A DNA stretch of 64,000 nucleotides from a virus (IMGVR_UViG_3300032239_001501:64001-128000); one strand, 5' to 3'. Positions 1 through 25,338 are shown, numbered from the stretch's first letter. Translations and numbers: made by a program. The notes: generated by a model from the letters alone, not told the origin.

Positions 1-166
1 AAACAAAATCTTTTAATTCTTCGTCTCCAAAAATTATAAGATTATTATCAACTTCTAAAAGTTTCTCAAATTTATCTAAATAATGTTGGTATGGTCTTGA
101 CCATCCTTCAGATAATTCTCCTCTTCCAATATCCCAAATACCTGTTACTAATGTTATATTACTCAT
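1..166 (-). CDS. HtrL/WlaTC-like glycosyltransferase, partial (runs off the left edge; not in the ORF track)
   Basis: Manual translation from ATG at 166: MSNITLVTGIWDIGRGELSEGWSRPYQHYLDKFEKLLEVDNNLIIFGDEELKDFV. TLVTxxWDIGR...Y...F is typical of HtrL-family N-termini. Overlaps the stop of the upstream gene. Confidence 0.65.
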   Translation of the reverse strand, partial: MSNITLVTGIWDIGRGELSEGWSRPYQHYLDKFEKLLEVDNNLIIFGDEELKDFV

Positions 167-1040
167 AAATTCTATTAAATTCTTCTAATATTTTATAAAA
201 ACTTTTATTTTGTGTAAACATTTCATCTGATACTCCTGATGGAGAATTACCTTTATACCACCATATATCAAAATGTTTTCTTACAAATAATTCTCTATTA
301 TTTACATACATCATACTCATTATTTGTTCTTCATGAGGTAAACCTTTGTCTTCAGTTAATATTTTTTTAGTATAATCTTCAAACATATTAACTATATTAT
401 CCCATTTATCTCTATGACCCCCAAACATTCCTCCAATGATATGAATACTTCTATCATATTCTTTATACCATTTTGCATCAACAGTACCAGACCAATAATT
501 CCTATCATTTTCTTTACCTAATATTAAAAATTTATCTCCAGTATCTTCAATCAAATTCTTTAGAAATTCATTACTAAATAAACTACTTTCATAATATCTT
601 GCTTGAGGGTGTTCTCCAATCAAATATTTTGGTGGAATCAAACCACAATGAGACAATCCAGCATCAATCCAATAATAATAATCATATGATTTATCTTCAT
701 TCCACCACCAATGAAATTTTGAGTATTGTATTTCAATACATCTATCTCCTTGTTTAATTTGGTCTACATTTTTTCTTTTTTTAATTAAATCTTTTAATTT
801 GGTATCATTAATATCAAAAACTTGAAACTTTAATTTTTCTTCTGAAATTTTATTATCAACATAAAAAAATTCTTTTAAAGAATTTATTTCTCTATCAGAT
901 GTATAACAAATAAAATCTGCATCTGTCATCTTTAACAATGATAGTAAGCTATATCTGTAGTGACCATGTCTACCTGTTCTTCCTCCCAATTCAGTTCCAT
1001 GTAAATCACTATAAATTGATGTAATAAATTTAACTGACAT
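159..1040 (-). CDS. HtrL/WlaTC-like (GT-A) glycosyltransferase
   Basis: 293 aa; YSKF...YYYWIDAGL, IGGMFGG and EEQIM motifs resemble the HtrL family. Confidence 0.6.
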   Translation of the reverse strand: MSVKFITSIYSDLHGTELGGRTGRHGHYRYSLLSLLKMTDADFICYTSDREINSLKEFFYVDNKISEEKLKFQVFDINDTKLKDLIKKRKNVDQIKQGDRCIEIQYSKFHWWWNEDKSYDYYYWIDAGLSHCGLIPPKYLIGEHPQARYYESSLFSNEFLKNLIEDTGDKFLILGKENDRNYWSGTVDAKWYKEYDRSIHIIGGMFGGHRDKWDNIVNMFEDYTKKILTEDKGLPHEEQIMSMMYVNNRELFVRKHFDIWWYKGNSPSGVSDEMFTQNKSFYKILEEFNRIYE

Positions 1041-1773
1041 AATATTGAACGTGTATTTTTTCTTGTTTTATTTTTTCATTTCCTTCTTCACTTTTAAATT
1101 CGTTAGGAATTTTTTTGGGGGAATATAAATCCCAATTATATGTTTGGGTATAAAAGTTATTATACATACCATGAGACACATCAGAATATGAATTTCTTTG
1201 TGGCGCAATTGGTAATACGGGACAATAACTTTGAAATTTAGGATAAATAAATTTAACCAAATATCCGTCAATTGGAAAATAATAATCTCCTGATTCTGTA
1301 AATGCGGTTAAAGAAATATTAAACATTTCATCATATACAGATTTATCGTAAATCAAAATATTTGTTGCAAATGTTTCTGTATGATGTTCTTCTTTTGGAG
1401 GAATATTTGTAATGTCTAACAATAAATCATATTTGTTGCTAATATTAACTTTTCTATTCAATGTTGGAGTTATGTTAAAAACACCAAATTCAATTCCTTC
1501 AATTTGTTTTTCAATATCTTCCAATAATGATTTTGCATATGGCATAAAGACACAATCATCTTCAATAACCATAACACGATCATATCCTTTTTCTTTTGCT
1601 ATTTTAATGACTTCTAAATGAGATAACGTGCAACCCATATAACTGTTTCTATTAACAGCATTAAATTTTTCAAAATCCCATCCAATATAATCCATCTCTT
1701 TTTTTATTAGATTAAGATTATCAAGTCTGGTTTCTAAATTTACAACAAACTTTGGTATTTCACTAAATTTCAT
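1030..1773 (-). CDS. GT25-family glycosyltransferase
   Basis: VVNLETRLD, FNAV, GCTLSH and VIEDD motifs of GT25. Confidence 0.8.
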   Translation of the reverse strand: MKFSEIPKFVVNLETRLDNLNLIKKEMDYIGWDFEKFNAVNRNSYMGCTLSHLEVIKIAKEKGYDRVMVIEDDCVFMPYAKSLLEDIEKQIEGIEFGVFNITPTLNRKVNISNKYDLLLDITNIPPKEEHHTETFATNILIYDKSVYDEMFNISLTAFTESGDYYFPIDGYLVKFIYPKFQSYCPVLPIAPQRNSYSDVSHGMYNNFYTQTYNWDLYSPKKIPNEFKSEEGNEKIKQEKIHVQYYVS

Positions 1774-3038
1774 TAACTAACTATATTATGATTTAATTGA
1801 CCTGTAATTCTATCACACCATCCTTTTGATTCTGAGTGAGGCCAAACAACCCAATATTGAGGTAATTCATCGGTTTGGAATTCTCTCCATACTTTACAAT
1901 ATTTATCAGGATCTCTCATAAAACCTGCAATTTCATTTTTATCTGCATCTTTTCTAAATAAAGTTTTATCTTCTTTACCGTGAAAGGCAACTACCCAAAA
2001 ATCGTAATCAGTTTCAGTAACTTGAGAATATCCAATATCAATACAATGTTTAAACATCATACAAAAACTATCTTTCCATTCTTGTTCTGTTTCAAAATTA
2101 TAAGGGTTTGGAGGGTAATTTTTATCTAATGTGTATTTGTCAATTGCTCTTTTTTCAAATAAAAGACCTGAATATTTTTCATAATCAGTTAATGTTCTAA
2201 CAGTACCAAATCCATAAGGACCATCATGACCTTCTTGTTTTTCACCATCCATTCCAAATAATTTTCTATTTGTATGGTGAGAATGTTTGTTTTTATCTCC
2301 CCAAGTCTTGTCATCATCCCATTGTTTTGTTCTACCTTTACGAGTATACTCATGGTATACAACTGGAATATGAGGATGAAATAAATCATAACCCCAAGTA
2401 TAAGCTCTTGCCGCAATTGAAATTTCTTCTCCATGAAAATAATATTCAGGATTATGTTGAACTTCTACGGAGAATTCACCTAAAGTAAAACAAAAGTGAG
2501 CGGAGTAGAATCTTGCCGTAACTGGTTTTGTCATCTCTCTCCAACCTGGAATTGTTTCAGGTAAAAAGAATACAGCTCCTTCAGGAATGAATCTATCAAA
2601 TACCATTCTCCAAGCTTCTTGTGATCTTCCTGCAGGGTCATTTTCGGGGTCAAAAGATGGAACATAACCCGTAAGTAAAGGTTTGTTGTACCCATCCTTT
2701 TGTAGCCCCTTTATCATCTTGATTAAGATATCATCCCAATCTTTAACAAATCTCATGTGAGAATCTATTTGTAATGTATATGTTTCACCATCATAAAGTT
2801 GTTGAGTTAAATTTCTTGCCCAACAAACACCTTTGGCGTCTTGATAAGGAATATCCAAGATTTTAAATCTTTTGTCTTTTCTATATTCATCTAAATTATC
2901 AAAACCATCTGTTTCGTTGAATTGTCTTGCGATTGCAAATACGAGGTTTTTTGGTCTCTTTGCGTTGGCAATCATGTCTTTTATTGTTGGAACTAATTGT
3001 GGGTCTCTGTAGGACGCGCATTGAATAAAAATCTTCAT
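1773..3038 (-). CDS. GT60-like polypeptide N-acetylglucosaminyltransferase (Skp1-HyPro GlcNAc-T/Gnt1-like)
   Basis: IFIQCASYRD, KGVCWAR, LQIDSHMRF..DWD, FHGEE, YTWGYDLF and YHEY motifs. The start is probably the ATG at 3038, because the longer ORF start lies inside a terminator. Confidence 0.8.
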   Translation of the reverse strand: MKIFIQCASYRDPQLVPTIKDMIANAKRPKNLVFAIARQFNETDGFDNLDEYRKDKRFKILDIPYQDAKGVCWARNLTQQLYDGETYTLQIDSHMRFVKDWDDILIKMIKGLQKDGYNKPLLTGYVPSFDPENDPAGRSQEAWRMVFDRFIPEGAVFFLPETIPGWREMTKPVTARFYSAHFCFTLGEFSVEVQHNPEYYFHGEEISIAARAYTWGYDLFHPHIPVVYHEYTRKGRTKQWDDDKTWGDKNKHSHHTNRKLFGMDGEKQEGHDGPYGFGTVRTLTDYEKYSGLLFEKRAIDKYTLDKNYPPNPYNFETEQEWKDSFCMMFKHCIDIGYSQVTETDYDFWVVAFHGKEDKTLFRKDADKNEIAGFMRDPDKYCKVWREFQTDELPQYWVVWPHSESKGWCDRITGQLNHNIVS

Positions 3039-3062
3039 TAAGTTATATTTTGTAATAAACAT

Positions 3063-3092
3063 AAAAAAACCCCTCATAAAATGAAGGGTTTT
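3063..3092 (-). terminator. Rho-independent terminator after the Thr-Pro gene cluster
   Basis: Minus strand AAAACCCTTCAT-TTT-ATGAGGGGTTTTTT hairpin plus U-tract. Confidence 0.7.
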
Positions 3093-3112
3093 AAATATAT
3101 TATTTTTAAATA

Positions 3113-4279
3113 TTAAGTATGTGTTGGTGTTGGTGTAGAAGTTGGTGTTGATGTGACAGATGGGGTACCAGATTGTGTTGGTGTTACAGTTGGTGTGTTA
3201 GTTGGAGTATTAGTTGGTGTTGAAGTTGGTCCACATATTGAAGAATTTAATACGATACCCGCAGAATTTAATTCATAAACAATACCGTTATAAACATACC
3301 AACCAGCCAAATTTACTCCAGGACAGAATCCTGAACTACAACCATAAAAGAATGAGTTATCCTCAAATACTGGACTTTGACCAAATATAGTTGCGACGTT
3401 TGAAGTACTACAAGCGCTTATTGATGAAGTCTCATCATGTTTTGTAGCAAATGTGTATCTTGCTGGTTGAGGGTCTGTTGGTGATGGTGTTGGGGTATGT
3501 GTTGGAGTTTGAGTTGCAGTACTAGTTGGAGTTGCGGTATTTGTTGGTGTGCTTGTGATTGTTGGTGTTGGAGTTACTAAAAGTGAACAACCTGCAACAA
3601 CTTTTTGAGTAATTTCTCCAGATCCTCCTGATACTAAATACCAATCATTTCCGTCAGAATAATATCCATTACCAGCAACCAAACTTAATGATGCGTCGGC
3701 ATATAAATAATCACCAACACTAAGAGTTGGTCCTTGAGCTCTTGCAATGTAAAGGAATGTTTCTGTTGCTAAACAAGCAGCGTTTTGTGTATCCCCAGAA
3801 CCCAATAAGAAACTATAATTAAATGGTGTTGGTGTATGTGTCGGAGTTCCGGTATTAGTTGGAGTATTAGTTGGAGTATTAGCCGGAGTTCCAGTTGGAG
3901 TTCCAGTTGGAGTTCCAGTTTGAGTATTTGTTGGAGTATTTGTTGGTGTTTGAGTGTTAGTTGTAGTATTTGTTGGTGTTTGAGTGTTAGTTGTAGTATT
4001 TGTTGGAGTATTAGTTGGTGTATTAGTTGGAGTTGTTGTTGATGTTGGAGTAGCCGTTGGAGTTGGAGTTGGTCCTACTGGAGGAAAGGCTCCCAAATTA
4101 ACCAAAACAATACTGTTTGGAAAAGCACTTGAATATGTTGTGTTTAATAACCAAATATTTTTAGTTTGATTTGGATTTAATTCTACTTGATATTCCCACA
4201 TTGCGTCGTCACATCTTTGGTAACTGAAATTCACAATTGATGAACCAGTGTTTGTTAAAGTATATTTACTACATGCCAT
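3113..4279 (-). CDS. Mucin-like Thr-Pro repeat protein with two Cys-bounded small domains (probable virion surface protein)
   Basis: Three TPT(N/Q/S)TPT tracts separate ~70-aa domains that start with AC and end with C; no signal peptide; TATTTATA motif upstream. Confidence 0.75.
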   Translation of the reverse strand: MACSKYTLTNTGSSIVNFSYQRCDDAMWEYQVELNPNQTKNIWLLNTTYSSAFPNSIVLVNLGAFPPVGPTPTPTATPTSTTTPTNTPTNTPTNTTTNTQTPTNTTTNTQTPTNTPTNTQTGTPTGTPTGTPANTPTNTPTNTGTPTHTPTPFNYSFLLGSGDTQNAACLATETFLYIARAQGPTLSVGDYLYADASLSLVAGNGYYSDGNDWYLVSGGSGEITQKVVAGCSLLVTPTPTITSTPTNTATPTSTATQTPTHTPTPSPTDPQPARYTFATKHDETSSISACSTSNVATIFGQSPVFEDNSFFYGCSSGFCPGVNLAGWYVYNGIVYELNSAGIVLNSSICGPTSTPTNTPTNTPTVTPTQSGTPSVTSTPTSTPTPTHT

Positions 4280-4410
4280 TTTGTTCTGTTTAAATTATAA
4301 ATATTATGATTTTGAATAAAAAATTACTAACTATTCGTATTAATCTATTATAACAGATAAATAGTGAGAACTATAGTAATATAATTAATTAAAATAAAAA
4401 AAAGTTTTTC

Positions 4411-5673
4411 TTAAATACATGAGAAATATGATCCTAATTGAGTACCTCCACTATTCAATTCAGTTACAGTTAAATTAAAACTATAAAATCCTGTCATATT
4501 AATTGATACAGTTCCACGAATATTATTATAAAATTGTGTGTTACTGGTAAATGACGGAGAGTCTCCATATATTACTGCGTTATATAATTGAGAACAAGCG
4601 TCAGTATAATTAGTACCTGAAAACGCCAAAAATTGGAATCTTAAGTGTGTTGGAGTAGGAGTCGGAGTATTAGAAGATGTAACGGTAGGTGTTTGTGTTG
4701 GAGTTGGAGTTTCTGTATTAGTTGGAGTATTGGTAGGAGTTTCAGTTGGCGTTTCTGTATTAGTTGGAGTATTAGTTGGAGTATTAGTTGGAGTTTCTGT
4801 GTTAGTTGGTGTTGGAGTATTAGTTGGAGTTTCTGTATTAGTTGGAGTTTGTGTTGGAGTTGAAGTTTCTGTATTAGTTGGAGTTTGTGTTGGAGTAGGT
4901 GTTTCAGTATTAGTTGGCGTTGGGGTGTTTGTTGATGTTTGAGTTACTGTAGGTGTTGGAGTTGCCAAATTAAGACATGCAAAATTATCTTTGTAAATTA
5001 CTTCTCCTGCACCTCCAGAAACAATATATAATATTGTTCCATTAGAATAATATCCGTCAGGAGCTGGAGTTGTAACACCAGCATTTGTATATAATATTTC
5101 TGTAACTTCAATAGTTGGCCCACCAGATCTTGTACCATAGAATGCCGTTTCAGTTGCAGAACAAGCTTCATTTGGAAATGTTCCATAACCTAATTGAAAT
5201 TGATAATTTATTGATGTTGGCGTTTGAGTAGGTGTAGCTGTTGGTGTTGCCGTTGATGTTGGAGTTTGAGTATTGGTTGAAGTATTAGTTGGAGTTTGAG
5301 TATTGGTTGAAGTATTAGTTGGAGTTGAAGTTTCAGTATTAGTAGGAGTATTAGTTGGTGTTGAAGTATTAGTTGGTGTTGGTGTTGAAGTTTCGGTAGG
5401 AGTTGTAGTTTGTGTTATAAATGGAGTTTCGGTAGGAGTTGGTGTTGGAGTAGAACTTGGTGTCGCAGATGGGCAAGGAACGCTTAAAATATAATTGTAA
5501 GCATATGTTGGAACATAACAATCATAACTTCCATACCAATAATCGGTAACATATGTGAATGGAAATATTTGATCACCTAAATTAATTGTTCCACCAGAAC
5601 AAGGATAAAAGGTAACATTAGCGGTTAATCCGCTTAAATTATCACTAAAAATTGATACACCGCAGTCAGACAT
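4411..5673 (-). CDS. Mucin-like Thr-Pro repeat protein (paralogue of 3113-4279)
   Basis: Long TPTNTETPT tracts; domain LGYG...ACSATET...GPT...LY...GYYSNG...VSGGAGE...C closely matches the neighbouring gene. Confidence 0.75.
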   Translation of the reverse strand: MSDCGVSIFSDNLSGLTANVTFYPCSGGTINLGDQIFPFTYVTDYWYGSYDCYVPTYAYNYILSVPCPSATPSSTPTPTPTETPFITQTTTPTETSTPTPTNTSTPTNTPTNTETSTPTNTSTNTQTPTNTSTNTQTPTSTATPTATPTQTPTSINYQFQLGYGTFPNEACSATETAFYGTRSGGPTIEVTEILYTNAGVTTPAPDGYYSNGTILYIVSGGAGEVIYKDNFACLNLATPTPTVTQTSTNTPTPTNTETPTPTQTPTNTETSTPTQTPTNTETPTNTPTPTNTETPTNTPTNTPTNTETPTETPTNTPTNTETPTPTQTPTVTSSNTPTPTPTHLRFQFLAFSGTNYTDACSQLYNAVIYGDSPSFTSNTQFYNNIRGTVSINMTGFYSFNLTVTELNSGGTQLGSYFSCI

Positions 5674-5699
5674 AATTATAAATACTTTATTTTTTCATT

Positions 5700-6260
5700 T
5701 TAATTACACAATCCTGTATCTAATATTTGACCATTGTAAATGTCTATTTGTATAAATGTTGCACTATCTGAGATAATATTATTAGAATTTATTGGTGGAA
5801 TTGTTAAAGATGCATCACCATAAACATAATCTCCGGCAACTAAAGATGAAAAAGATTTTTGACAATAAATTGTAACGTTTGATGGATTAGGTATATTAAC
5901 TAAATTACAAGCATCTTCAAAATATCCTGCAGTCCATATGTTATACATTAAGACCATTGTTGGTGTAACTGTTGGAGTTACATGTGGTGTAGGTGTAGGA
6001 GTTTGAGTTATAGATGTTGGAGTAATAGTTGGTGTTTGAGTTGGTGTTGGTGTTGTTGATGGACATAATCCTGCAAAGGCAATTGTTAATGGTGCTCCGC
6101 AATCTTGACCATACAAATCTTTAGCACAAACATAATGAGATTGAAGAGGGTCAATTGGCGTTACACTAACTATACCAGTACATCCTGTCCAAGCATAATA
6201 CCCTTGTTGAACGGTGTTATAGTTTGTTATTTTAAAATAGTTACAATCTGTTGTATGCAT
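5700..6260 (-). CDS. Thr-Pro linker protein with Cys-containing N- and C-terminal domains
   Basis: C.YFKITN...Y.WTGC N-domain, TPT linker, AC...GDYVYGDASLT...GQI....C C-domain. Confidence 0.7.
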   Translation of the reverse strand: MHTTDCNYFKITNYNTVQQGYYAWTGCTGIVSVTPIDPLQSHYVCAKDLYGQDCGAPLTIAFAGLCPSTTPTPTQTPTITPTSITQTPTPTPHVTPTVTPTMVLMYNIWTAGYFEDACNLVNIPNPSNVTIYCQKSFSSLVAGDYVYGDASLTIPPINSNNIISDSATFIQIDIYNGQILDTGLCN

Positions 6261-6272
6261 TGTTTAATTATA

Positions 6273-8981
6273 TTAAATAAATCTTCCGTTATAATTTGTT
6301 AAATTATATTCTAAGCTTCTAACGTCTTGACCATCAATACAACTTGTGAATAAATTTAACGTAACCACTTGTCCTGTAGAAACTGCTCCATATGCGGCAG
6401 TAAATCCTTCATTAACAAACGTATACTCATCAGGAACCGCAACCATTGTACCCCCTTTATAGAGTTTTGCCTGGATATAAACAGGGTTAGTTCCGACATC
6501 TCCATACCAACCAGCATTTGCGTTAATTGTTATGATATTTTGACCAGGATAATCCAACTTAAATTGTATCAAATCAATTAATACAGATTCAAAACCTACT
6601 CCTGTATTATCTCCACCCCAAGTTAATATTGGATTACCTGATGTCGGCCATTGCTCAGAACAACACCATCCGATGTAGTCAGGAAGACTGTTTTGACCAA
6701 TATCAGGAATTGTAACTCTTGTTCTCGTATCTAAATCTGTTCCATCATTAAATGCGTAAGTTAATACAATATAATCAGCATCAAAAGTGAAATTACCAGG
6801 GATATATGGTATAGTTGTTGGAGTTGGTGTTGGAGTTGATGTTGGCGTTTGAGATACACCAATTGTTGGTGTATTTGTTGGTGATGGTGTTACTGTTGGT
6901 GTTGAAGTTTGGGTTGGTGTTATATTTTGAGTTGACCCAATTGTTGGGGTTGGTGTAGGTGTTTCAGAACTTGTTGGTGTTGGGGTTTCTGTATTAGTTG
7001 GTGTAATTGTTGGAGTTATACAATTATATAAATCATATCCTAAATCATTACAAGGTAGTGAAAGATATATCAAATCATTACAAGGTAACGGTAAATAATA
7101 TAAATCATTATTAGGTATTGTGATTCTACAATTTAAACAATTAGGATTTAATAAGTCATATCTATTTTGTAATATTCTAAAATTATGTGCAATTTGACCA
7201 GCATCCAATGGTTCAGTATACATTCTGAATGCACTAATATCTCCAATCATACTACCACCAAATATTTCTTCTAAATGGATATGAGTGGTTAATCCTGAAT
7301 AAATTGTATGGTCTAAATCATTAGTTGTTAAACATTCCGGATCTTGTTGATAAACTATATCATCTACAGTATCAGGACATCCTCCCGAAAAAGTTAAGTT
7401 ATCATGTAACCCTTGAGTTCCTCCACCCAATGAAATATTGTAACCAACACCAATTTGTTTTTCTTTTTCAAAATTTAAAAGTCTTGGTATTATTTCTTCA
7501 AAATTTTCTGCAACCATGAATAATTTACCGTTAACATAAATTTTCAAAGTTCCAACCCTAAATGGTTCTTCTAACAACCAATTATCATTAAAACTAACAA
7601 CTTCAGTAGTCGCTGGATCATAATCTTTTTCATGAGTTATTGGTGGTTGTATTAAACTTAAACTATTGTTGGCAGTTGTTGCGGTATATTGTTCGGACAC
7701 TATTAAACCAAGTCCTCCCTTATCCCATAAATTACATTCTCCAAACCACTCTCTTCTTCTAAATACAGCATCTATTTGAACCCAATGTTCAATATTAGCA
7801 TAAGTTGTACCTGAACAATCATCAAAAATTCCTCTTGTTGAACACCATTCATTTACTGATGTTCCTGTCACATATGTTTGACCTGTAAGACAAGTTCCTG
7901 TTGATTCACAATGACCTGTTATGGTATATGTTTTAATACATAATCTTGGACTACCTGTATCACCACTTAATCTTAAAGATAACGCATTTGAAACTTCATC
8001 ATATAATGGGTCTTTTTCAGGATATTCGGCATGTGTTGAACAACTACAAGGACATCCACAAGTACAAATTGTTGAAGTAACTCCTGACGGTTGATAAACA
8101 GGTAAACATCCATGAGATGCGGTAATGCCTGTTTGTTCACACTCACAAGTATACATACAAGTTAAACCTGAAGTAACTCTTGTATATCCAGTATCTTGTT
8201 TCGGATGACCATCTGCATAATGATAAAACTTATTTTCTGCTCTTGCTCCCATATAAAAGAACGTACCTTTATTGTTTGGGTATCTATTATTAAGACCTCC
8301 TGATGTATCTCCAGTCCATCTATATCTTAACATAAATTCTGCAGTCCAACCTAAATTAACTCTTTCAGGAAATATTTGGTAATCATAACCAGGCATTTTA
8401 TAAAATCCTTGAAAAAATCCACCGTTAAGTTTTGTAAAGTATCCTACTGGATTTCCATCAGTTGAATAAGATAGATTGTATGTATATGAATTATCATTCC
8501 ATAATCTATTTTCTATTGTTGTAAAACCAGTGATAGGGTGCATTTTCATTCTCCTATCATATTTGTATCTACTATATGTGTCAGCTGAAGTTGTATATAA
8601 ACCAGTTGTTAATTCAATTGTTTCACCTGACATTTTTTTAACAAGTCCATTATCAATTCCTGTAAGTCCGACATCACATAATTCCGTAACTATAGGACAA
8701 AAATTAGGGTCAATGTGGGTAGGGTTCCAATAATTTTCAGAAACAATTGTATCATAATCAAAAGAACAAGTTGATGTTTGGCAAACAGTTGTGGCAGAAT
8801 TATTGAAATCAAATTTAAATGGCATTCTATTTCCATCATCTTCTGCAATTAATAATGGTGAAAAAATTACTTCTTGGTCATAGTCTTTTTCATCAGATGC
8901 CAAGCAAATATCTGTTATTTCATTCACAGGGATAAGACCCAAACGCCTAAAATTATATTGATTAATGTTCTGATATGCCAT
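6273..8981 (-). CDS. Large virion-type protein with LamG/ConA-like region, Thr-Pro linker and C-terminal beta domain
   Basis: LKIYVNGKL and GDISAFRMYTEPL...QI..NF are LamG-like; Cys-rich segment; TPT tract; C-terminal DLDTRT..WGGDNTG.G.ES. Confidence 0.6.
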   Translation of the reverse strand: MAYQNINQYNFRRLGLIPVNEITDICLASDEKDYDQEVIFSPLLIAEDDGNRMPFKFDFNNSATTVCQTSTCSFDYDTIVSENYWNPTHIDPNFCPIVTELCDVGLTGIDNGLVKKMSGETIELTTGLYTTSADTYSRYKYDRRMKMHPITGFTTIENRLWNDNSYTYNLSYSTDGNPVGYFTKLNGGFFQGFYKMPGYDYQIFPERVNLGWTAEFMLRYRWTGDTSGGLNNRYPNNKGTFFYMGARAENKFYHYADGHPKQDTGYTRVTSGLTCMYTCECEQTGITASHGCLPVYQPSGVTSTICTCGCPCSCSTHAEYPEKDPLYDEVSNALSLRLSGDTGSPRLCIKTYTITGHCESTGTCLTGQTYVTGTSVNEWCSTRGIFDDCSGTTYANIEHWVQIDAVFRRREWFGECNLWDKGGLGLIVSEQYTATTANNSLSLIQPPITHEKDYDPATTEVVSFNDNWLLEEPFRVGTLKIYVNGKLFMVAENFEEIIPRLLNFEKEKQIGVGYNISLGGGTQGLHDNLTFSGGCPDTVDDIVYQQDPECLTTNDLDHTIYSGLTTHIHLEEIFGGSMIGDISAFRMYTEPLDAGQIAHNFRILQNRYDLLNPNCLNCRITIPNNDLYYLPLPCNDLIYLSLPCNDLGYDLYNCITPTITPTNTETPTPTSSETPTPTPTIGSTQNITPTQTSTPTVTPSPTNTPTIGVSQTPTSTPTPTPTTIPYIPGNFTFDADYIVLTYAFNDGTDLDTRTRVTIPDIGQNSLPDYIGWCCSEQWPTSGNPILTWGGDNTGVGFESVLIDLIQFKLDYPGQNIITINANAGWYGDVGTNPVYIQAKLYKGGTMVAVPDEYTFVNEGFTAAYGAVSTGQVVTLNLFTSCIDGQDVRSLEYNLTNYNGRFI

Positions 8982-11695: not shown

Positions 11696-12907
11696 ATGTC
11701 AAAAATTAAAGTACTTGTAATCCCATCCGATAGAACTGGAGTGGGTAAATTTAGGTCAGTTGACCCCCACATCTTTTTACAAAAATTATACCCAAACGAT
11801 TTTCATGTTGATATCATTTATGATGTCCCTATGACTGATATGAATTTTTGGAAAGAATACCAAATAGTGGCATTTCATAGAAGTATAAATCCTGATTTTG
11901 AATCCTCATATAGTTTAATTCAAAAACTTAATGAAATGGGTATCATAACAATAGATGATATTGATGACTATTGGTTACCAACAAAAGAACATCCAATATA
12001 TGATGTTATTAAATTTAATAAGATTAACGAAAAAATTACCAATAATCTTAGAGTTGCAAAATATGTAACAACAACTACAACATTATTTGCTGATGAAATA
12101 ATGAAATTAAATAAAAATGTTGTTATTTTTCCAAATGCAATTGATCCAAATGAATCTCAATTTAAAGAACCAACACTTGAATCAGATAGATTAAGAGTTG
12201 GATGGTTAGGTGGTTCTTCACATCTTCACGATTTACAATTATTAGACCAATCATTTAGTAAGTTAACTTCATTAAAAGATAAATTACAGTATGTTATATG
12301 TGGATTTGACACTAGAGGTTCTGTAACTGAAATAAATGCAGAAACTGGAGAACATAAAAAAAGAGATATTTTACCTCATGAAACTGTATGGGCTCAATAT
12401 GAAAAAATATTTACCCAAAACTATACTACAGTTACAGAAGATTATAAAAAATATTTGAATAGTTTTATAAATGAAAGTTATCCAAATGAAATGAATGAAC
12501 CATACCTAAGAGTATGGACAAGACCTGTTCAATCTTATGCCAAAAATTATTCAAAATTTGATATATCTTTAGCACCAATTAAAAATCATATCTTTAATAG
12601 AATGAAATCTCAGCTTAAAGTTATTGAAGCAGGGTTTTATAAAAAAGCAATTATTGCGTCTAATTTAGGACCTTATACTATTGATTTAAAACATTGTTTG
12701 GAACATGGTAACTTTGTTGATGGAAATGCATTATTAGTTGATGAAAATAGAAATCACTCCGATTGGGCTAAATTCATTGAAAAGTTAGTTAAGAATCCAA
12801 ACATGGTAAAAGATATGGGAGAAAGACTTTATGAAACAGTTAAAGACAAATATGACTTAAACGTAGTAACAAAAGCAAGAGCAGAATTTTATAAATCACT
12901 AGTATGA
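11696..12907 (+). CDS. GT4-like (GT-B) glycosyltransferase
   Basis: DIDDYW, VGWLGGSSH..DL, DISLAP...FNRMKSQLKVIEAG. Confidence 0.8.
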   Translation: MSKIKVLVIPSDRTGVGKFRSVDPHIFLQKLYPNDFHVDIIYDVPMTDMNFWKEYQIVAFHRSINPDFESSYSLIQKLNEMGIITIDDIDDYWLPTKEHPIYDVIKFNKINEKITNNLRVAKYVTTTTTLFADEIMKLNKNVVIFPNAIDPNESQFKEPTLESDRLRVGWLGGSSHLHDLQLLDQSFSKLTSLKDKLQYVICGFDTRGSVTEINAETGEHKKRDILPHETVWAQYEKIFTQNYTTVTEDYKKYLNSFINESYPNEMNEPYLRVWTRPVQSYAKNYSKFDISLAPIKNHIFNRMKSQLKVIEAGFYKKAIIASNLGPYTIDLKHCLEHGNFVDGNALLVDENRNHSDWAKFIEKLVKNPNMVKDMGERLYETVKDKYDLNVVTKARAEFYKSLV

Positions 12908-13605
12908 TAACAGTACCAATAACCAAAATACTTTTTTTAGATATTGAAACAGTTGGATGTGAATCTGATTGGGATTCTTTTAAAAAAAAGAAACCAGAAT
13001 TATCGTTTCAATTTGAACACATTCAAGACAACCTTAGAAAAAGATTTCCTGAGGAATCTGATACTCCTATTGATAAGTTATTTGTTAATAGAGCAGCATT
13101 AGTTCCTGAATTTTTAAAGATAGTTTGTGTTAGTGTTGCATTTGTTTTAGATGATGGAAGTGTTAAAATTCAATCTTTTCATAGTGAAGATGAATCAAAA
13201 TTACTTAAAGATGTTCAAAAATTGTTAAATCGTACTGGTGATTTAGGATTTTTCTTATGTGGTCATAATGTTAAAGGATTTGATATTCCTACATTGGCTA
13301 AACGTATGATGATACATGGATTGAAACCACCAAAACTATTACCAAGTTATGATACAAAGCCTTGGGAAATTAAAGCAATTGACACCAAAGATATTTGGCA
13401 ATATGGTGGATATGGTCAATTTGCATCTCTTGAGTTAATGTGTGTTTGTATGGGGGTTGAATCGTCTAAAAATACTGAAGTAACAGGAAATAGAGTGCAT
13501 GAAGCATATTGGACAGATAAAAATATTGATGGTATTGTAAAATACTGTGAAAAAGATGTTATAGTTTTAATAGATTTAATAAAAAAATTAATAAAATTAC
13601 AATGA
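12904..13605 (+). CDS. DEDD 3'-5' exonuclease (PolB-exo related)
   Basis: LDIETV, GHNVKGFDIP and YCEKDV correspond to ExoI-III. Confidence 0.85.
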   Translation: MITVPITKILFLDIETVGCESDWDSFKKKKPELSFQFEHIQDNLRKRFPEESDTPIDKLFVNRAALVPEFLKIVCVSVAFVLDDGSVKIQSFHSEDESKLLKDVQKLLNRTGDLGFFLCGHNVKGFDIPTLAKRMMIHGLKPPKLLPSYDTKPWEIKAIDTKDIWQYGGYGQFASLELMCVCMGVESSKNTEVTGNRVHEAYWTDKNIDGIVKYCEKDVIVLIDLIKKLIKLQ

Positions 13606-14222
13606 TAGAAGATATAGAAGGGATAGACCCAAAAATGATGCAAGAAATAATGGAACAGTTTGAAAAAATAAAAAAAGAAGCTGGAATAGAACCTGATGAC
13701 CAATCTAAAAAAGAAATGGAAGATATGTTAGGATTTACTATGGATGAACTTGATGAAGATATTATTTTAAAAGCAAAAACAAGAATTTTACAAGTAAAAA
13801 AAATTCATCCAGATGCCTATAGTCCAGTTTACAATTATAAGTCAGATTCAGGATTTGATTTACATTCAGTAGAAGAAGTTAATTTAGAACCTTTTGGTAG
13901 AGCAATAGTTCCTACAGGTTTAGTTCTTGGTATTCCAGAAGAATATGAAATTCAAGTTAGACCAAAAAGTGGGTTAGCATTAAAACAAGGATTGACTGTT
14001 TTGAATACACCAGGAACTGTAGATGCAGGATACGATGGAGAAATAAAAGTAATAATATTCAATACCACTAATAATCCAGTTACAATTAATAAAGGAATGA
14101 AAATAGGTCAAGCTGTATTATGCCCAGTTGTTTGTGGAAAATATGTTGGTATTGAACTTGTTGAAAATATTGAAAAAAGAGAACGTGGTAATAACGGATT
14201 TGGAAGTACTGGATTATTTTAA
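13602..14222 (+). CDS. dut: Trimeric dUTPase with acidic N-terminal extension
   Basis: SGFDL, RPKSG, GTVDAGYDGEI, IGQ, RGNNGFGSTG. Confidence 0.92.
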   Translation: MIEDIEGIDPKMMQEIMEQFEKIKKEAGIEPDDQSKKEMEDMLGFTMDELDEDIILKAKTRILQVKKIHPDAYSPVYNYKSDSGFDLHSVEEVNLEPFGRAIVPTGLVLGIPEEYEIQVRPKSGLALKQGLTVLNTPGTVDAGYDGEIKVIIFNTTNNPVTINKGMKIGQAVLCPVVCGKYVGIELVENIEKRERGNNGFGSTGLF

Positions 14223-14249
14223 AAAAAATAAGTAAAAAATAATTAAATA

Positions 14250-15878
14250 ATGTTAACAATAGCATATTCAACAAGAAAACCAAATCCTGAATTTACAGAA
14301 TATTTGAAAAAAAGTTCTGGATTTAAAAAAATTAATGTAATAGAAAAAGTTAATAATGGAGAGAAATCATTATCTCAAGTTTATAACGAAATTTTATCTG
14401 AATCAAAAACTGACATAATTGTATTTTGTCATGATGATATCTATTTTGATACGTCAGGATGGTACAACAAAATAATGAAACACTTTGATAAAAGTGATTT
14501 TGGTATTATTGGTATGGCAGGATCGACAAGTTTACCAAGTAGTGGACAATGGTGGGAAGATAGAAAGAAAATGATTGGTATTGTTAATCATGAACATGAA
14601 GGTAAAAAATGGGCGTCAAAATATTCTGAAGATTTAAATAAAAAAATTAAAGAAACCGTAATGGTTGATGGGTTATTTTTTGCCGTTAGTAAAACAAAAT
14701 TAAAAAGTAATTTTATTGAAGAGTTTAAAGGATTCCATTTTTATGATGTTGCATTTTGTTTTGAAAACTTCCTTAAAGGTGTTAAAGTTGGAGTCATTAC
14801 AGATATTAGAGTTACCCATAAATCTATAGGTCAAACTAATGAACAATGGGAAGAAAATAGAAAATTATTTGTTGAAAAATATTCAGAATCTTTACCAGCA
14901 AAAACAGATTTTGATAAAGATAAAAGATTAAAGGTTTTAATATCGTGTCTGTTTTTTAGAACCCTAACAGGTTCAGAATTGTATGTTTATGAACTTGCAA
15001 AAGAGTTAATTAAACTTAATTGTAGCGTTACAGTATTATCACAAATAGGTGGACCTTTAACCGATATGGCAAGAAAAATTGGTATTAAATGTCTTTCATT
15101 TGAAGAAGCACCAGGATTTAAACTTGGTGATGGAAAGTGGGGATTTAATACTGAAGAAGGGTTTAAACCTTCAATATTAAATAATTTATATAGAATTTCT
15201 GAAGTTAATTTTGACATAATACATATGCAACATAAACCAGTTGCTGAAAGAATGATTCAATTTTACCCTGAGATAGATAAAATATATTCAATACATTCTG
15301 AAGTTATTGATTTGGAAAATCCAATTAAACATGAATCTATCAAAAAATATATTGCAATTAGACCTGAAATTAAGGATTATATTGTTAATGAATTTGAAAT
15401 TCCTGAGAAAGATGTTGAGGTAATTTACAATCCTGTTGATAACTTAAAGTTTCAACCAAAGGATAAAAAAGATGATAATTATGTTTTATTTGTTGGTACA
15501 ATAGATTACTTAAGAAAAGAAACTATTTTAGATTTGATGGAAAAAACAAAAGAAGAAGGGAAAGAACTATGGTTAGTCGGTGAAGATAAATCAAATTATT
15601 TACAACAAGTATTATTTGAACAACATGTAAAACATTTCCCTCCTACGTGGAACATTGAAGGATTTATACATTCTTGTTCTGAAACAGCTGGAATCCAATT
15701 AGGAAGGACAACTATAGAAGGTTGGATGTGTGGAAAACCAAGTTGGATATATAATGTAAATTCAAATGGATTTATACAATCAAAAGAATTATATCAACCT
15801 CCAGTTGATATTGAAAAATACTTTACATCAAATGTTGCAAAACAAATAAAAGAAAAATATATTGAAATTCTGTCGTGA
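14250..15878 (+). CDS. Two-domain glycosyltransferase (GT2-like plus GT4-like)
   Basis: N-terminal VFCHDDI, VDGLF, FHFYD; C-terminal GSELYVYELAKEL, VIYNPVD, GRTTIEGWMCGKP. Confidence 0.8.
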   Translation: MLTIAYSTRKPNPEFTEYLKKSSGFKKINVIEKVNNGEKSLSQVYNEILSESKTDIIVFCHDDIYFDTSGWYNKIMKHFDKSDFGIIGMAGSTSLPSSGQWWEDRKKMIGIVNHEHEGKKWASKYSEDLNKKIKETVMVDGLFFAVSKTKLKSNFIEEFKGFHFYDVAFCFENFLKGVKVGVITDIRVTHKSIGQTNEQWEENRKLFVEKYSESLPAKTDFDKDKRLKVLISCLFFRTLTGSELYVYELAKELIKLNCSVTVLSQIGGPLTDMARKIGIKCLSFEEAPGFKLGDGKWGFNTEEGFKPSILNNLYRISEVNFDIIHMQHKPVAERMIQFYPEIDKIYSIHSEVIDLENPIKHESIKKYIAIRPEIKDYIVNEFEIPEKDVEVIYNPVDNLKFQPKDKKDDNYVLFVGTIDYLRKETILDLMEKTKEEGKELWLVGEDKSNYLQQVLFEQHVKHFPPTWNIEGFIHSCSETAGIQLGRTTIEGWMCGKPSWIYNVNSNGFIQSKELYQPPVDIEKYFTSNVAKQIKEKYIEILS

Positions 15879-16585
15879 TAATATTAACTACAACATATAA
15901 TTGTTCTTCGTATGTGGAAAAATCTTTGTTGAGTATTATGTCGCAAAGATTTAAAGATTTTACTTGTTATATTACAGATGACTTATCTACAGATAATACA
16001 AGAGAAGTTATCAAAAAAACTATTGAAGGAGACTCAAGATTCATCTTAATAGAAAATCACATTAAATTATATCAACCAGGTAATTACGACCAAATTATTA
16101 ATTGGAGATCAATACCTGGTGAAGAAATATGCGTAGAAGTAGATGGTGATGATTGGTTGCCTGATTCAAATGTTTTTACAAGAATTAATGATGTATACCA
16201 AGATACTAATGTTTGGATGACAAGTGGTTCATTTAAGTATCACGATGGTAGATCGGGGTTTGCAAGTCCCCCAAAACAATTTAATAATATTAGACATCAA
16301 GCCTTCACATTATCTCATCTTAGAACTTGGAAATCTTGGTTATGGAAAAAGATTAAAGAAGAAGATTTAAAAGATGAAAATGGTAATTATTGGAATGTTG
16401 CAGGAGATTTATCATTTATGTTTCCAATGTTTGAAATGTCAGGGGAAGAACATTATAGATTTTTGCCCGATATAAATTACATTTATAATGAGTCAAATCC
16501 GATTAATGACCACAAAGTTAACATGAATAATGTTATATCAACAGTAAATAAAATAAGAAATAAACCTGAATACAAAAAAATATGA
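15875..16585 (+). CDS. GT2 glycosyltransferase
   Basis: TTYN, DDLSTD, VDGDDWL. Confidence 0.85.
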   Translation: MIILTTTYNCSSYVEKSLLSIMSQRFKDFTCYITDDLSTDNTREVIKKTIEGDSRFILIENHIKLYQPGNYDQIINWRSIPGEEICVEVDGDDWLPDSNVFTRINDVYQDTNVWMTSGSFKYHDGRSGFASPPKQFNNIRHQAFTLSHLRTWKSWLWKKIKEEDLKDENGNYWNVAGDLSFMFPMFEMSGEEHYRFLPDINYIYNESNPINDHKVNMNNVISTVNKIRNKPEYKKI

Positions 16586-17199
16586 CACCAAACGAAAAAT
16601 GGAACGCAGATAGGGGTGATGATACATTAATCATTGATTACCCTTTAAATGAAAATTCACAAGTAATTGAATTAGGAGGATATCATGGATTATGGACTAA
16701 AAGAATATCAGAAAAATTTAATTGTAATATTTTAACAATTGAACCGATACCCGAATTTTATAATAACATGGTAAACGAATTTAATTATTATTTAAAAAAT
16801 AATAGAGATAAAATTAAAACTGAAAATTTTGGAATATCAACCGAAGAAAAAGAACTTTCATTTTCAGTTAATGGTGATGCAACTTCTGCACATCTACCAT
16901 CCTCAAACCAAACTACAATTACTTGTCACACTTTAGAATATTATTTACAAAAATATAATATTGATAAAGTTGATTTATTACAAGTTAATATTGAAGGTGA
17001 AGAATATCCTTTATTGGAAGAATGGACTAAATCAGGAATCATTAATAAAGTAAAATATTTACAAGTTCAGTTTCATAGATATGGTGAAAACTATGATTTG
17101 AGACATAAAACCATACAAGAAAATTTAAAAAACTTAGGATTTAAACTTAGGTTTGAATATGATTTTGTTTGGGAGGCGTGGGAAAATACAAATATCTAA
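16582..17199 (+). CDS. FkbM-family methyltransferase
   Basis: IELGGYHG, IEP, DLLQVNIEGEEY, LQVQFH. Confidence 0.8.
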   Translation: MTPNEKWNADRGDDTLIIDYPLNENSQVIELGGYHGLWTKRISEKFNCNILTIEPIPEFYNNMVNEFNYYLKNNRDKIKTENFGISTEEKELSFSVNGDATSAHLPSSNQTTITCHTLEYYLQKYNIDKVDLLQVNIEGEEYPLLEEWTKSGIINKVKYLQVQFHRYGENYDLRHKTIQENLKNLGFKLRFEYDFVWEAWENTNI

Positions 17200-17202
17200 T
17201 CT

Positions 17203-18021
17203 ATGGGTAATTTAATATCTTGTAATTTAATGGGAGGATTGGGAAATCAAATGTTCCAAGCAGGACATGCTTTGGCACAAGGGTGGAAACATAATAGAGA
17301 TTCTGTTTTTTTACCTAAGTCTTGGACTCCAATGCAAGGAAAAGATACTTCTCATTATAAAGAAAATGTTTTTAGAAATCTAACATTTGTTGATAATATT
17401 GACGGATTCACCAAAGTTCATGAAGGGCCTTGGGAATTTTCAGAAATAAATCCTGTTGAAGAAAACACTGTCTTTGAAGGTTATTTCCAAAGTGGAAAAA
17501 ACTTATTAGGATTTAATGATAAGATTAGAGTTATGTTTGGTCCAACAGAACAGTTTATAACTGAAATTACACAAAAATACCCACAACTTAATCAAGATAA
17601 TACCGTATCAATTCACATTAGATTTGGTGATTACAAACAAAATCCACATATACATCCAAGTGTTTCAAAAGAATACTTAGATAAAGCATTAGAGATGATT
17701 GGTTCATACAGTCATCTATTTTTATTTGGGGATGATAAAGAATGGTTATCAAATAACTTTACAGGTGACAAAATCACTTTAGTAAATGAAGACGATTATG
17801 TTGATATGTGGATGATGTCTCTTTGTAAAAATAACATAATACCAAACTCCACATTTTCTTGGTGGAGTGCGTTTCTTAATAAAAACATAAATAAAAAAGT
17901 AATTGCTCCGTCAATTTGGTTTGGTCCAAGTGGACCTCAAAAATACTACGATATGTACGAACCTGATTGGACTAAAATGGATGTCATTTACTCTGACGGA
18001 GAATTAAAACCAACAAATTAA
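17203..18021 (+). CDS. GT11 alpha-1,2-fucosyltransferase-like
   Basis: GGLGNQMFQ, GYFQS, HIRFGDY, NSTFSWWSA. Confidence 0.9.
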   Translation: MGNLISCNLMGGLGNQMFQAGHALAQGWKHNRDSVFLPKSWTPMQGKDTSHYKENVFRNLTFVDNIDGFTKVHEGPWEFSEINPVEENTVFEGYFQSGKNLLGFNDKIRVMFGPTEQFITEITQKYPQLNQDNTVSIHIRFGDYKQNPHIHPSVSKEYLDKALEMIGSYSHLFLFGDDKEWLSNNFTGDKITLVNEDDYVDMWMMSLCKNNIIPNSTFSWWSAFLNKNINKKVIAPSIWFGPSGPQKYYDMYEPDWTKMDVIYSDGELKPTN

Positions 18022-18022
18022 T

Positions 18023-18853
18023 ATGAACGACAAAATTAAAATTAGAAAAGTTTCTGATTATTGGGGACAATATGATTGTTCTTCAGCAAGAAACACTCCA
18101 AAAACATTACATTGGTTATCAAGAGATACTCAAGACCCATATGAGATAAGTGTCTATGTTGATAATTACATTAAAGATTTGGGATTTAATGATCCATCAA
18201 GAGAAAAAATTGGGTGGTTATTAGAATCCCCACAAATGAATGAAGGAACTATCAACTATCTTCTTAATAATTTAGATATGGTAAAAGAACACTATAAATA
18301 CATTTTTACTTGTATGGATAGTTTAATTGCTCTTGGTTCTCCATTTACATATACTATTTCAAACGCAGTGCCTTGGATATGGGAACAAAATAGAAAAATT
18401 CATGAAAAAACTAAATTAGTTAGTATGATTGCTTCTAATAAAGGATGGTTACGTGGTCATAAAAATAGATTAGATTGGGTTGAAAAATTAAAAGATAAAG
18501 TTGATTTATTTGGTACAGGAAGACCAAATCAATTGAATGATAAAGAGGACGGATTGAAAGATTATATGTTTTCTGTATCAATTGAAAATGATGATTCTGA
18601 TGGATATTTTACAGAAAAATTAACTGACAATTTTGTTACAGGAACAGTTCCAGTATATTGGGGATCTAGAAAAATTGTTGAAAAATATTTTGACCCAACA
18701 GGTGTAATCTTTTTAGAAGACGACCCGACACTATCAACTTTATCAGTTGAAAAGTATAAATCAATGATTCCTGCAATTGAAAGAAATTTCAAAGCGGCTC
18801 AAGAACTTCCTATTTCGGAAGATTATTTCTTTGAAAAATATTTAAAAAAATGA
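18023..18853 (+). CDS. GT10 alpha-1,3/4-fucosyltransferase-like
   Basis: FSVSIEN...GYFTEKL.D.F..GTVPVYWG, the GT10 motif. Confidence 0.85.
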   Translation: MNDKIKIRKVSDYWGQYDCSSARNTPKTLHWLSRDTQDPYEISVYVDNYIKDLGFNDPSREKIGWLLESPQMNEGTINYLLNNLDMVKEHYKYIFTCMDSLIALGSPFTYTISNAVPWIWEQNRKIHEKTKLVSMIASNKGWLRGHKNRLDWVEKLKDKVDLFGTGRPNQLNDKEDGLKDYMFSVSIENDDSDGYFTEKLTDNFVTGTVPVYWGSRKIVEKYFDPTGVIFLEDDPTLSTLSVEKYKSMIPAIERNFKAAQELPISEDYFFEKYLKK

Positions 18854-19680
18854 AATATCTAGTTTTAGGTTCGGAAGGCCAAATTGGCTTAGAACTTTGT
18901 AAATTTTTAAAAAAAGAAGGTCATGAAGTTTTAACTTTTGACATAGAAGAAAATTTTATGCAAGATTTAAGAATAAAAGGTATTGTTGATTCTCGTGTAA
19001 AAGAAGCTGACTTTGTAATGTTTTTAGCATTTGATGTTGGAGGTTCAAGATATTTAAAAAAATATCAAAATACATATGAGTTTATAGATAATAATGCAAG
19101 ACTTATGGTTAATACATTTGACGCATTAAAGTCATATAGAAAACCTTTTATTTTTGCATCATCTCAGATGTCTAATATGTCATATTCTCCTTATGGAGTT
19201 GCCAAAGCTTTAGGAGAATGTTATACAAAGGCTTTAGGAGGTATTACTGTTAAATTTTGGAATGTTTATGGGCCTGAACATAATTTAGAAAAATCTCATG
19301 TAATTACCGATTTTATTTTAAAGGCTAAAGATTATGGACATATTACAATGATGACTGATGGAACAGAAGAAAGACAATTCCTTCATGCTGAAGATTGTTC
19401 AAACGCTTTAATTATTTTATCTGAAAAGTATAATGAAATAGATAGAAACAAAGAATTACATATCACAAATTTTGAATGGAATACTATTTTAGAAGTTGCA
19501 GAAATAATTAAAGAACAAATTTATTGTAAAATAACCCCATCAAAAGAAATTGATACGGTACAACTTAATAAAAGAAATGAACCAGACCCATATATTTTAA
19601 ATTATTGGAAACCAAAAATTTCATTAAAAGAAGGGATTGGAAAAATTGTAAAACAAATTAATGATGGATCTATTTTCTGA
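18850..19680 (+). CDS. NAD-dependent epimerase/dehydratase (extended SDR)
   Basis: GSEGQIG, FASS, YGVAK, NVYGP, RQFLHAED. Confidence 0.85.
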   Translation: MKYLVLGSEGQIGLELCKFLKKEGHEVLTFDIEENFMQDLRIKGIVDSRVKEADFVMFLAFDVGGSRYLKKYQNTYEFIDNNARLMVNTFDALKSYRKPFIFASSQMSNMSYSPYGVAKALGECYTKALGGITVKFWNVYGPEHNLEKSHVITDFILKAKDYGHITMMTDGTEERQFLHAEDCSNALIILSEKYNEIDRNKELHITNFEWNTILEVAEIIKEQIYCKITPSKEIDTVQLNKRNEPDPYILNYWKPKISLKEGIGKIVKQINDGSIF

Positions 19681-20524: not shown

Positions 20525-20536
20525 TAAAAAAAAACT

Positions 20537-22262: not shown

Positions 22263-22263
22263 T

Positions 22264-22644
22264 ATGATTACAATACCAGTAAGTGTTGGAGAATTAATTG
22301 ATAAATTATCAATCCTACACGTAAAACAATTAAAAATTTCTAACGAAGAAAAATTGGAGTATGTTAATAAAGAATTTGAACTATTATATAACTTATCATC
22401 ATATTATTTGAATAACCAAGAAGTTGAAAACTTATACCATCAATTAGTTGAAATTAATAAAAAATTATGGGACATAGAAGATAAACTTAGAGTTATTGAA
22501 TCTGAAAACAATTTTGACTTAGAATTTATAGATTTGGCAAGAAAAGTGTACTTTACAAATGATGAAAGATTTAGATTAAAAAATAAAATTAATTTAACTA
22601 CTTTATCTGAAATCAGAGAAATTAAAGACTATAAAAAGTATTAA
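22264..22644 (+). CDS. DUF6165-like protein
   Basis: IPVSVGELIDKLSIL...LWDIED...LARKVYFTNDERF.LK..IN. Confidence 0.7.
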   Translation: MITIPVSVGELIDKLSILHVKQLKISNEEKLEYVNKEFELLYNLSSYYLNNQEVENLYHQLVEINKKLWDIEDKLRVIESENNFDLEFIDLARKVYFTNDERFRLKNKINLTTLSEIREIKDYKKY

Positions 22645-22660
22645 AATTTAAAACCACTTA

Positions 22661-24280: not shown

Positions 24281-24281
24281 T

Positions 24282-25337: not shown

Positions 25338-25338
25338 T

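Follow-up and report, generated by a model that had tools for sequence, protein, structure and literature searches.

The characterised enzymes of glycosyltransferase family 60 (GT60) are all polypeptide N-acetylglucosamine (GlcNAc) transferases, acting on Thr-rich mucin-like tracts or on a hydroxyproline of Skp1 (PMC8724618, PMC3769586). The Skp1 enzyme is soluble and cytoplasmic, and its GlcNAc is extended by galactose and then fucose (PMC8724618); Golgi-type GT60 enzymes prefer Thr-rich mucin-like tracts (PMC3769586). Here, we describe a GT60 gene and adjoining genes for Thr-Pro repeat proteins in a 64,000-nucleotide stretch of viral DNA (IMGVR_UViG_3300032239_001501:64001-128000; hereafter, the window), a locus that on balance probably encodes a phage-borne cytoplasmic system for mucin-type protein O-glycosylation. 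Such a system had been proposed earlier from the same DNA (the original prediction), and the activity given there for the family, GlcNAc transfer to Thr or to Skp1 hydroxyproline, matches that of the characterised enzymes.

Chlorovirus PBCV-1 and giant viruses encode a guanosine diphosphate (GDP)-mannose dehydratase, an enzyme of the GDP-fucose synthase type, and several glycosyltransferases (GTs) and methyltransferases, and virion glycosylation in mycobacteriophages was reportedly described by Freeman et al. in 2023. In one account (PMC12619734), mycobacteriophage glycans shield the particle from anti-phage responses, and a brief summary elsewhere (PMC5852040), together with general background, has giant viruses glycosylating their own structural proteins independently of the secretory pathway. 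At least two Schiff-positive protein bands were reported from virions of Xanthomonas phage XacN1, whose authors named ORF334, a homologue of the GT60 described here, as one of two glycosyltransferases and suggested that phage enzymes make the virion glycoproteins (PMC5852040). In the literature that we found, GT60 in phages appears only as a bare listing among viral auxiliary genes, no paper notes the phage Thr-Pro tracts, and mycobacteriophages were the only case that turned up of tailed-phage virion glycosylation by phage enzymes.

The GT60 gene lies on the minus strand (1773 to 3077; 421 to 434 amino acids [aa], depending on the start codon). Its product matched PF11397 (E value, 1.4e-64; 219.3 bits; cut-off, 21) over profile positions 2 to 44 and 95 to 351 of 352, and phrog_24687 with an E value of 1.2e-164. 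The sequence contains IQCASYRD, LQIDSHMRF, and FHGEE motifs, with a further His downstream, and an alignment of 18 GT60 sequences (36 to 47% identity) shows no variation at the DxH (DSH), HGEE, and WHEY-type residues. Judged by profile and motifs, membership of the predicted product in GT60 is unambiguous, in keeping with the family named in the original prediction, and we regard it as a candidate initiating polypeptide O-GlcNAc or O-linked N-acetylhexosamine (HexNAc) transferase. Some 110 aa at the C terminus form a conserved extension with neither a ricin nor any other Pfam domain. Searches of the PDB with the GT60 sequence and with the 18-sequence profile found no relative, and a related-loci search with P0023 returned no matches.

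Read along the minus strand, genes for proteins of 902, 186, 420, and 388 aa (8981 to 3113) are followed by a hairpin, the GT60 gene, a GT25 gene, and genes for proteins of 293 and 556 aa; past the window edge, downstream of the 556-aa gene, come a 144-aa protein and a family-B DNA polymerase (PolB). The first four proteins consist of globular segments, with 8 to 30 Cys per protein, joined by tracts of Thr-Pro repeats (TPT, after the recurring Thr-Pro-Thr), and both the list of open reading frames (ORFs) and the tract counts agree with the earlier description of four consecutive genes with Cys-bounded domains and TPT tracts at 3113 to 8981. Tract residues number 159 in the 388-aa protein, 183 in the 420-aa protein, 35 in the 186-aa protein, and 51 in the 902-aa protein. 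TPT is followed by N (71 times), P (32), Q (16), V (8), S (7), or E (7), TPTN being the commonest word, and the tract DNA is made of imperfect tandem repeats with a period of 12 to 42.

The 388-aa protein (3113 to 4279, minus strand) has three small globular domains, four Thr-Pro tracts, and a TPT-rich C-terminal tail, and the 420-aa protein (4411 to 5673, minus strand) has three globular domains and two tracts of about 90 residues each. Two small beta domains and a 35-residue Thr-Pro linker make up the 186-aa protein (5700 to 6260, minus strand), which is conserved in relatives (23 homologues aligned; 52 to 77% identity), with four invariant Cys in the N-terminal domain and one near each end of the C-terminal domain. 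In its AlphaFold2 model, the domains have a predicted local distance difference test score (pLDDT) of about 80 and 70, and the linker (residues 70 to 101) is disordered; Foldseek gave no match at an E value of ≤0.001, and the best VIA match (Z, 5.4; Ena1C) is in that tool's noise range. No fold was assigned to this protein, since no PDB match stands out.

The 902-aa protein (6273 to 8981, minus strand) comprises a conserved N-terminal region of about 645 aa, tracts at residues 656 to 728, and a C-terminal domain at residues 733 to 902. Across relatives, which are 651 to 1517 aa long in all, the N-terminal region is 75 to 98% conserved, and the part beyond residue 645 or so, made up of tracts and modules, is absent at one extreme and exceeds 800 residues at the other. 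By this comparison, the C terminus of the family, which has at least 2,598 clusters at 90% identity in metagenomes, appears to be a hot spot of diversification. Its C-terminal domain matched phrog_24956 (E value, 6e-20), with homologues in XacN1 (ORF372), in a gene beside gp9 of cyanophage S-SSM7, and in a crAssphage "tail protein"; gp9 is the baseplate-tail fibre connector, and fibre or decoration proteins anchored in the virion usually combine a conserved N terminus with a variable C terminus. The AlphaFold2 model of the N-terminal region gave no usable fold (mean pLDDT, 29.5), because none of the 2,598 homologues is below 75% identity. A fifth TPT protein in the window (277 aa; 48166 to 48999, minus strand) has a 139-residue tract and is encoded next to the portal, terminase, and prohead protease, a further one (709 aa) lies outside the window at contig positions 1056 to 3185, and the whole contig has seven ORFs with at least three TPT words each.

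Thr-Pro tracts recur with GT60 in other phages. The search used a DNA pattern for TPTxTPT, for which a backwards-read control gave 0 to 2 matches per strand in every genome. Of 11 phage genomes with GT60 that were searched, 10 contain the pattern (the window phage, G001, G002, XacN1, Xoo-sp13, CM1, G003, G004, G005, and G007), with 74 and 59 matches in two complete relatives, 51 each in XacN1 and Xoo-sp13, and 22 in CM1. It was found in none of nine GT60-free T4-like or jumbo phage genomes (2.66 Mb searched), which include the nearest cultured relatives by capsid and the Xanthomonas jumbo phage XaC1. Five near-complete GT60 genomes have no tract near the gene, and four of these carry tracts elsewhere (51, 4, 15, and 10 matches). 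TPT genes lie directly upstream of GT60 in 77 of 80 close IMG/VR relatives, the remaining three having fewer than 130 bases of sequence upstream of GT60; this adjacency reflects shared descent and is not independent evidence. Among 80 distant GT60 loci (38 to 70% identity), TPTxTPT occurs within 10 kb in 32, with at least three copies in 22 and at less than 1 kb in several. Logan contigs L095 and L098 (GT60, 43 to 48% identical) encode a Peptidase_S74 tail fibre, a T/S-P-tract protein, and two GT60 genes, and GT60 directly adjoins tracts in three or more GT60 lineages. Across lineages, the globular domains to which the tracts are attached are many and unrelated, so it is the tract, not the domain, that accompanies GT60. 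In the reverse direction, GT60 was present in 15 of 39 arbitrarily sampled viral contigs of at least 40 kb with TPTxTPTxTPT, versus 4 of 50,697 cultured phage records. By these counts, GT60 appears to be nearly always accompanied by tracts, and tract-bearing genomes appear enriched for GT60 by orders of magnitude. The link is not obligatory: the co-occurrence that the original prediction expected is seen as enrichment in both directions, with exceptions both ways.

GT60 homologues number 4,399 cluster representatives (E value, ≤0.001) in a 50%-identity library, many of them about 420 aa long and matched over their full length. The four cultured records are Xanthomonas phages XacN1 and Xoo-sp13 and Stenotrophomonas phages CM1 and RAS14, in which GT60 heads a cassette with a homologue of the 293-aa protein, an HtrL-GT fusion, and a carbamoyltransferase, near the DNA polymerase; PolB adjoins the cassette in the window phage, XacN1, and Xoo-sp13. 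Compared with XacN1, identity is 46% for GT60, 30% for the 293-aa protein (ORF332), and 42.5%, over the full length, for the 556-aa protein (ORF330). A TARA contig has two GT60 genes and then FkbM, a sulfotransferase, and a 568-aa HtrL fusion, a gene order in which the GT60-HtrL link recurs. On a metagenome contig of 46% GC (L096:1-3117), GT60 genes flank PqqD-like (peptide-recognition) and ScmC-like genes, and this locus may be bacterial and make a peptide natural product whose glycosylation depends on GT60. Contig L179 (IMGVR_UViG_GVMAG-M-3300014493-9_000001), binned as a giant-virus metagenome-assembled genome, encodes a 56% identical GT60 and has 10 TPTxTPT matches at a distance of 2.9 kb from it; the contig is either phage DNA binned wrongly or a case of GT60 with TPT in a giant virus.

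A terminator-like hairpin with a T run (3066 to 3092, minus strand) stands between the last TPT gene and GT60, where the original prediction had placed a terminator, the hairpin running from 3092 to 3066 ahead of the T run. The hairpin and the first ATG of the longest GT60 frame overlap, which makes a start at 3038 or 3062 more likely. The motif TATTTAT lies 9 to 17 nucleotides (nt) upstream of the TPT genes for the 902-, 388- (17 nt), 277- (14 nt), and 709-aa proteins and 4 nt upstream of that for the 420-aa protein; it also precedes the portal, the protease, and several head genes, and not GT60 or the other GT genes. TATTTAT is probably a promoter element. Over the whole contig (G000), it is under-represented (122 copies versus about 210 expected), yet 45 of 162 genes have a copy no more than 70 nt upstream, often 13 to 17 nt from the start codon. 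The motif shared with head genes, the tail-module C-terminal domain of the 902-aa protein, and its conserved N terminus and variable C terminus make a virion location of the TPT proteins, as fibre or decoration, likely.

Downstream of GT60, a 247-aa protein (1030 to 1773, minus strand) is a candidate extending enzyme of family GT25. Its match to PF01755 is above the cut-off (E value, 2.9e-10; 40.8 bits; cut-off, 24), in line with the GT25 gene expected on this strand, and membership is only weakly supported because a short part of the profile was matched (positions 68 to 117 of 199); the sequence has an acidic DxD-type motif (VIEDDCVF). Two HtrL-like genes had also been expected. One is borne out by the 556-aa protein, a fusion of HtrL_YibB and a GT-A-like part, of which only the first 166 bases, from a start codon at position 166, lie in the window (whole gene, contig G000:C1 62496 to 64166, minus strand): residues 3 to 252, its N-terminal half, matched PF09612 (E value, 3.3e-21; 76.5 bits; cut-off, 24.1), and its score against the NCBIfam equivalog TIGR02192 (79.7; cut-off, 264.9) is so far under the cut-off as to indicate a family member and not the equivalent of Escherichia coli YibB. 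The other, the 293-aa protein (159 to 1040, minus strand), is probably a glycan-building enzyme and had no Pfam or NCBIfam match, the HtrL_YibB profile included. It resembles the 556-aa fusion weakly by BLASTP (E value, 7e-4) at the matching position, and its nearest named ESM-Atlas clusters, which are language-model neighbours, are HtrL_YibB (score, 0.97); for this protein, "HtrL-like" is a lead and not a family membership. As the original prediction had said, the TPT proteins appear to lack signal peptides: neither a signal peptide nor a membrane segment was predicted in the GT60, GT25, HtrL-type, or TPT proteins. No Wzx, Wzy, GtrA-like, flippase, or polymerase-like protein was found across the 165-kb contig; a 116-aa four-helix membrane protein (59932 to 60282), considered as a GtrA-like flippase, had no Pfam match and was set aside. 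In another GT60 phage (L185:9741-11348), a homologue of the 144-aa protein encoded just past the 556-aa gene (G000:C1 62099 to 62533) is part of a fusion with Thr-Pro tracts and a C-terminal domain.

Further glycan genes form an island on the plus strand (11696 to 26145; Pfam matches), with a GT1/4-like protein, a GT2_5-GT4 fusion, GT2, an FkbM methyltransferase, GT11 and GT10 fucosyltransferases, a GDP-fucose synthase-like epimerase, a GDP-mannose 4,6-dehydratase, a GT1-like protein, and another GT2; genes for an exonuclease, a dUTPase, and PhoH are interspersed. The content of this island resembles that of chloroviruses. A 2-oxoglutarate-Fe(II) oxygenase of PF13640, a family that includes prolyl hydroxylases, is encoded outside the window (G000:C1 147236 to 147832, minus strand) with TATTTAT upstream, and a hydroxyproline route is possible in the window phage. 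The complete relative G001 has three copies of PF13640, and G002 and XacN1 have none; a hydroxyproline route was accordingly dropped as a constant feature, the oxygenase not being a constant partner.

The gene content for a mucin-type system is present, with an initiating GT, Thr-Pro repeat acceptor candidates, and extending enzymes, and the acceptor, sugar, virion location, and biological role that we infer would fit together as follows. The soluble GT60 would add HexNAc to Thr of the Thr-Pro tracts in the infected cytoplasm; by family precedent, the first sugar would be alpha-GlcNAc, and hydroxylated Pro would be a less likely acceptor than Thr. GT25, the HtrL-type proteins, and the island enzymes would extend the glycan, probably by a hexose and by methylated or plain fucose from the phage GDP-fucose genes. 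The products would be stiff, extended, protease-resistant, glycan-coated spacers between the small globular domains of hypervariable proteins, which would most likely be exposed on the virion as fibre or decoration.

Several points weigh against this interpretation. For the window phage, the case for glycosylation is one of comparative genomics, the proteins in the XacN1 glycoprotein bands were not identified, and structure models did not reveal what the TPT proteins are. The GT60 genomes are phylogenetically non-independent, with roughly 3 to 6 lineages countable; one (G006, 95% complete) has no TPT tract at all, and no TPTxTPT lies within 10 kb in 48 of the 80 diverse GT60 loci. TATTTAT also stands upstream of PolB, and the late expression that the original prediction gave to the TPT proteins, which the sharing of this motif with head genes and not GT genes would favour, is for that reason given little weight. 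GT60 is missing from five of eight complete TPT-bearing viral genomes, so the tracts can be plain linkers or use other enzymes. The last point would suit an alternative in which the tracts are unglycosylated flexible linkers that lie nearby and the GTs act on a non-protein acceptor of the host cell (lipopolysaccharide [LPS] core, O-antigen, or capsule), for example, in superinfection exclusion or so that progeny do not adsorb to lysed cells. GT25 and HtrL are classically LPS-core-associated families, GT25 and HtrL_YibB being known from LPS-core clusters, and GT10/GT11 fucosyltransferases and GDP-fucose genes occur in O-antigen pathways too. Such GT clusters have been interpreted, in a review of jumbo phages, as serving to modify polysaccharides of the host surface (PMC7824862). 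We consider this unlikely here: all known acceptors of GT60 are proteins (PMC8724618), the 165-kb contig yielded no lipid-carrier transferase, flippase, or polymerase and the enzymes have no membrane segment, and the two-way GT60-TPT enrichment and the Schiff-positive XacN1 virion proteins would be left unexplained.

The genome without tracts and the loci without a tract within 10 kb would also be expected if GT60 and its partners glycosylated other proteins (capsid or tail tube subunits, or host proteins) and the tracts were independent fibre linkers. In the mycobacteriophage account, the glycans are on the C termini of capsid and tail tube subunits (PMC12619734), and the gene order at L096 suggests that other peptide acceptors exist in the GT60 family. 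Set against these are the preference of Golgi-type GT60 enzymes for Thr-rich mucin-like tracts (PMC3769586), the enrichment in both directions, and the direct adjacency in at least three GT60 lineages, and we rate this alternative as quite improbable. It would be very surprising if the GTs instead served, as in T-even phages, to hypermodify phage DNA by way of glycosylated hydroxymethyl-pyrimidines. The position of the cassette beside PolB in three phages, with a carbamoyltransferase beside it in XacN1, and the dUTPase/dCTP-deaminase-like and exonuclease genes interspersed in the island would fit such a role; GT60, however, is not among the enzymes of one published DNA-glycosylation account and has no family precedent for it, the GT60-TPT association would go unexplained, and no hydroxymethylase turned up, no systematic search for one having been made. 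Each of these explanations accounts less well than O-glycosylation of the tracts for the staining seen in XacN1 and for the co-occurrence.

The window comes from a linear IMG/VR viral contig of 165.5 kb (CheckV completeness, 55%; GC content, about 29%) that belongs to an abundant freshwater T4-like jumbo phage. This phage has genes for a major capsid protein of the T4 type and for the portal, the large terminase, and the prohead protease; its complete relatives are 309 to 321 kb long, and its closest cultured relatives by capsid are Microcystis and Flavobacterium myoviruses. The major capsid protein (606 aa; 34591 to 36411, minus strand) has its Gp23 domain in residues 354 to 591 only, and the long N-terminal region had no Pfam match. 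A ClpB-like two-ring AAA+ chaperone gene lies at 50994 to 53009 (plus strand). A full-length SusC-like TonB-dependent receptor (CarboxypepD_reg and outer-membrane barrel) is encoded at 56791 to 59853 (plus strand), which would fit a Bacteroidota host.

If O-glycosylation of the tracts is borne out, GT60, thought typical of protists and now linked to phages, would extend mucin-type initiation to the prokaryotic virosphere, with a bearing on the origin of the eukaryotic GT60/GT27 pathway, and the locus would represent a second, mechanistically different system of tailed-phage virion glycosylation. It appears to be very common (more than 2,500 clusters at 90% for the 902-aa family and more than 4,000 at 50% for GT60, many phage-sized), and enzymes of the window type may supply soluble tools for making mucin-like glycopeptides in bacteria. 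We raise more tentatively, as possible and rather doubtful, that jumbo phages widespread in water and soil build mucin-like glycoproteins via GT60 in the cytoplasm of bacteria, with fucosylated, methylated, dense O-glycans on hypervariable virion-fibre tracts that would act as adsorption bait (e.g., for Bacteroidota SusC/D-type uptake) or as a shield.

Compared with the protist enzymes Dictyostelium Gnt1 (Skp1), Dictyostelium Golgi pp-alphaGlcNAcT, and Trypanosoma cruzi TcOGNT-2, the window GT60 belongs to the same Pfam and CAZy family, has the DxH and HGEE motifs, and is adjoined by Thr-rich, Pro-containing repeat candidates; like the Skp1 enzyme, it is soluble, with no signal anchor, and fucosyl- and GT2-type enzymes encoded in the window recall the GlcNAc-Gal-Fuc pathway of Skp1. 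It differs in being phage-encoded, for a bacterial cytoplasm, in its C-terminal extension of some 110 aa with no Pfam match, and in its partners (GT25, HtrL-type, GT10, and GT11). XacN1 (ORF330 to ORF334) likewise groups GT60 with an HtrL-like gene and an HtrL-GT fusion in a single cassette close to PolB, and several of its large proteins have long TPT(V/R/I) tracts; unlike the window phage, it adds a carbamoyltransferase, has no detectable GT25 homologue, and does not have its TPT proteins immediately upstream of GT60. The GT60 family, the tracts, and the glycosylated proteins were not identified in the XacN1 paper (PMC5852040). By the mycobacteriophage account, GTs encoded by those phages act in the host cytoplasm on structural proteins of the same phage to form a glycan shield on the virion, as proposed here, the acceptors being capsid and tail tube C termini there and mucin-like Thr-Pro tracts among the window candidates (PMC12619734). 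Like PBCV-1 and the giant viruses, the window phage encodes a GDP-fucose pathway, several GTs, and a methyltransferase; those viruses have eukaryotic hosts and atypical N-linked glycans on the major capsid protein, whereas the window belongs to a tailed phage with predicted O-linked, mucin-type glycans. Phage-encoded virion glycosylation is already known; its GT60-initiated, mucin-type form on repeat tracts would, if our interpretation is right, be new.

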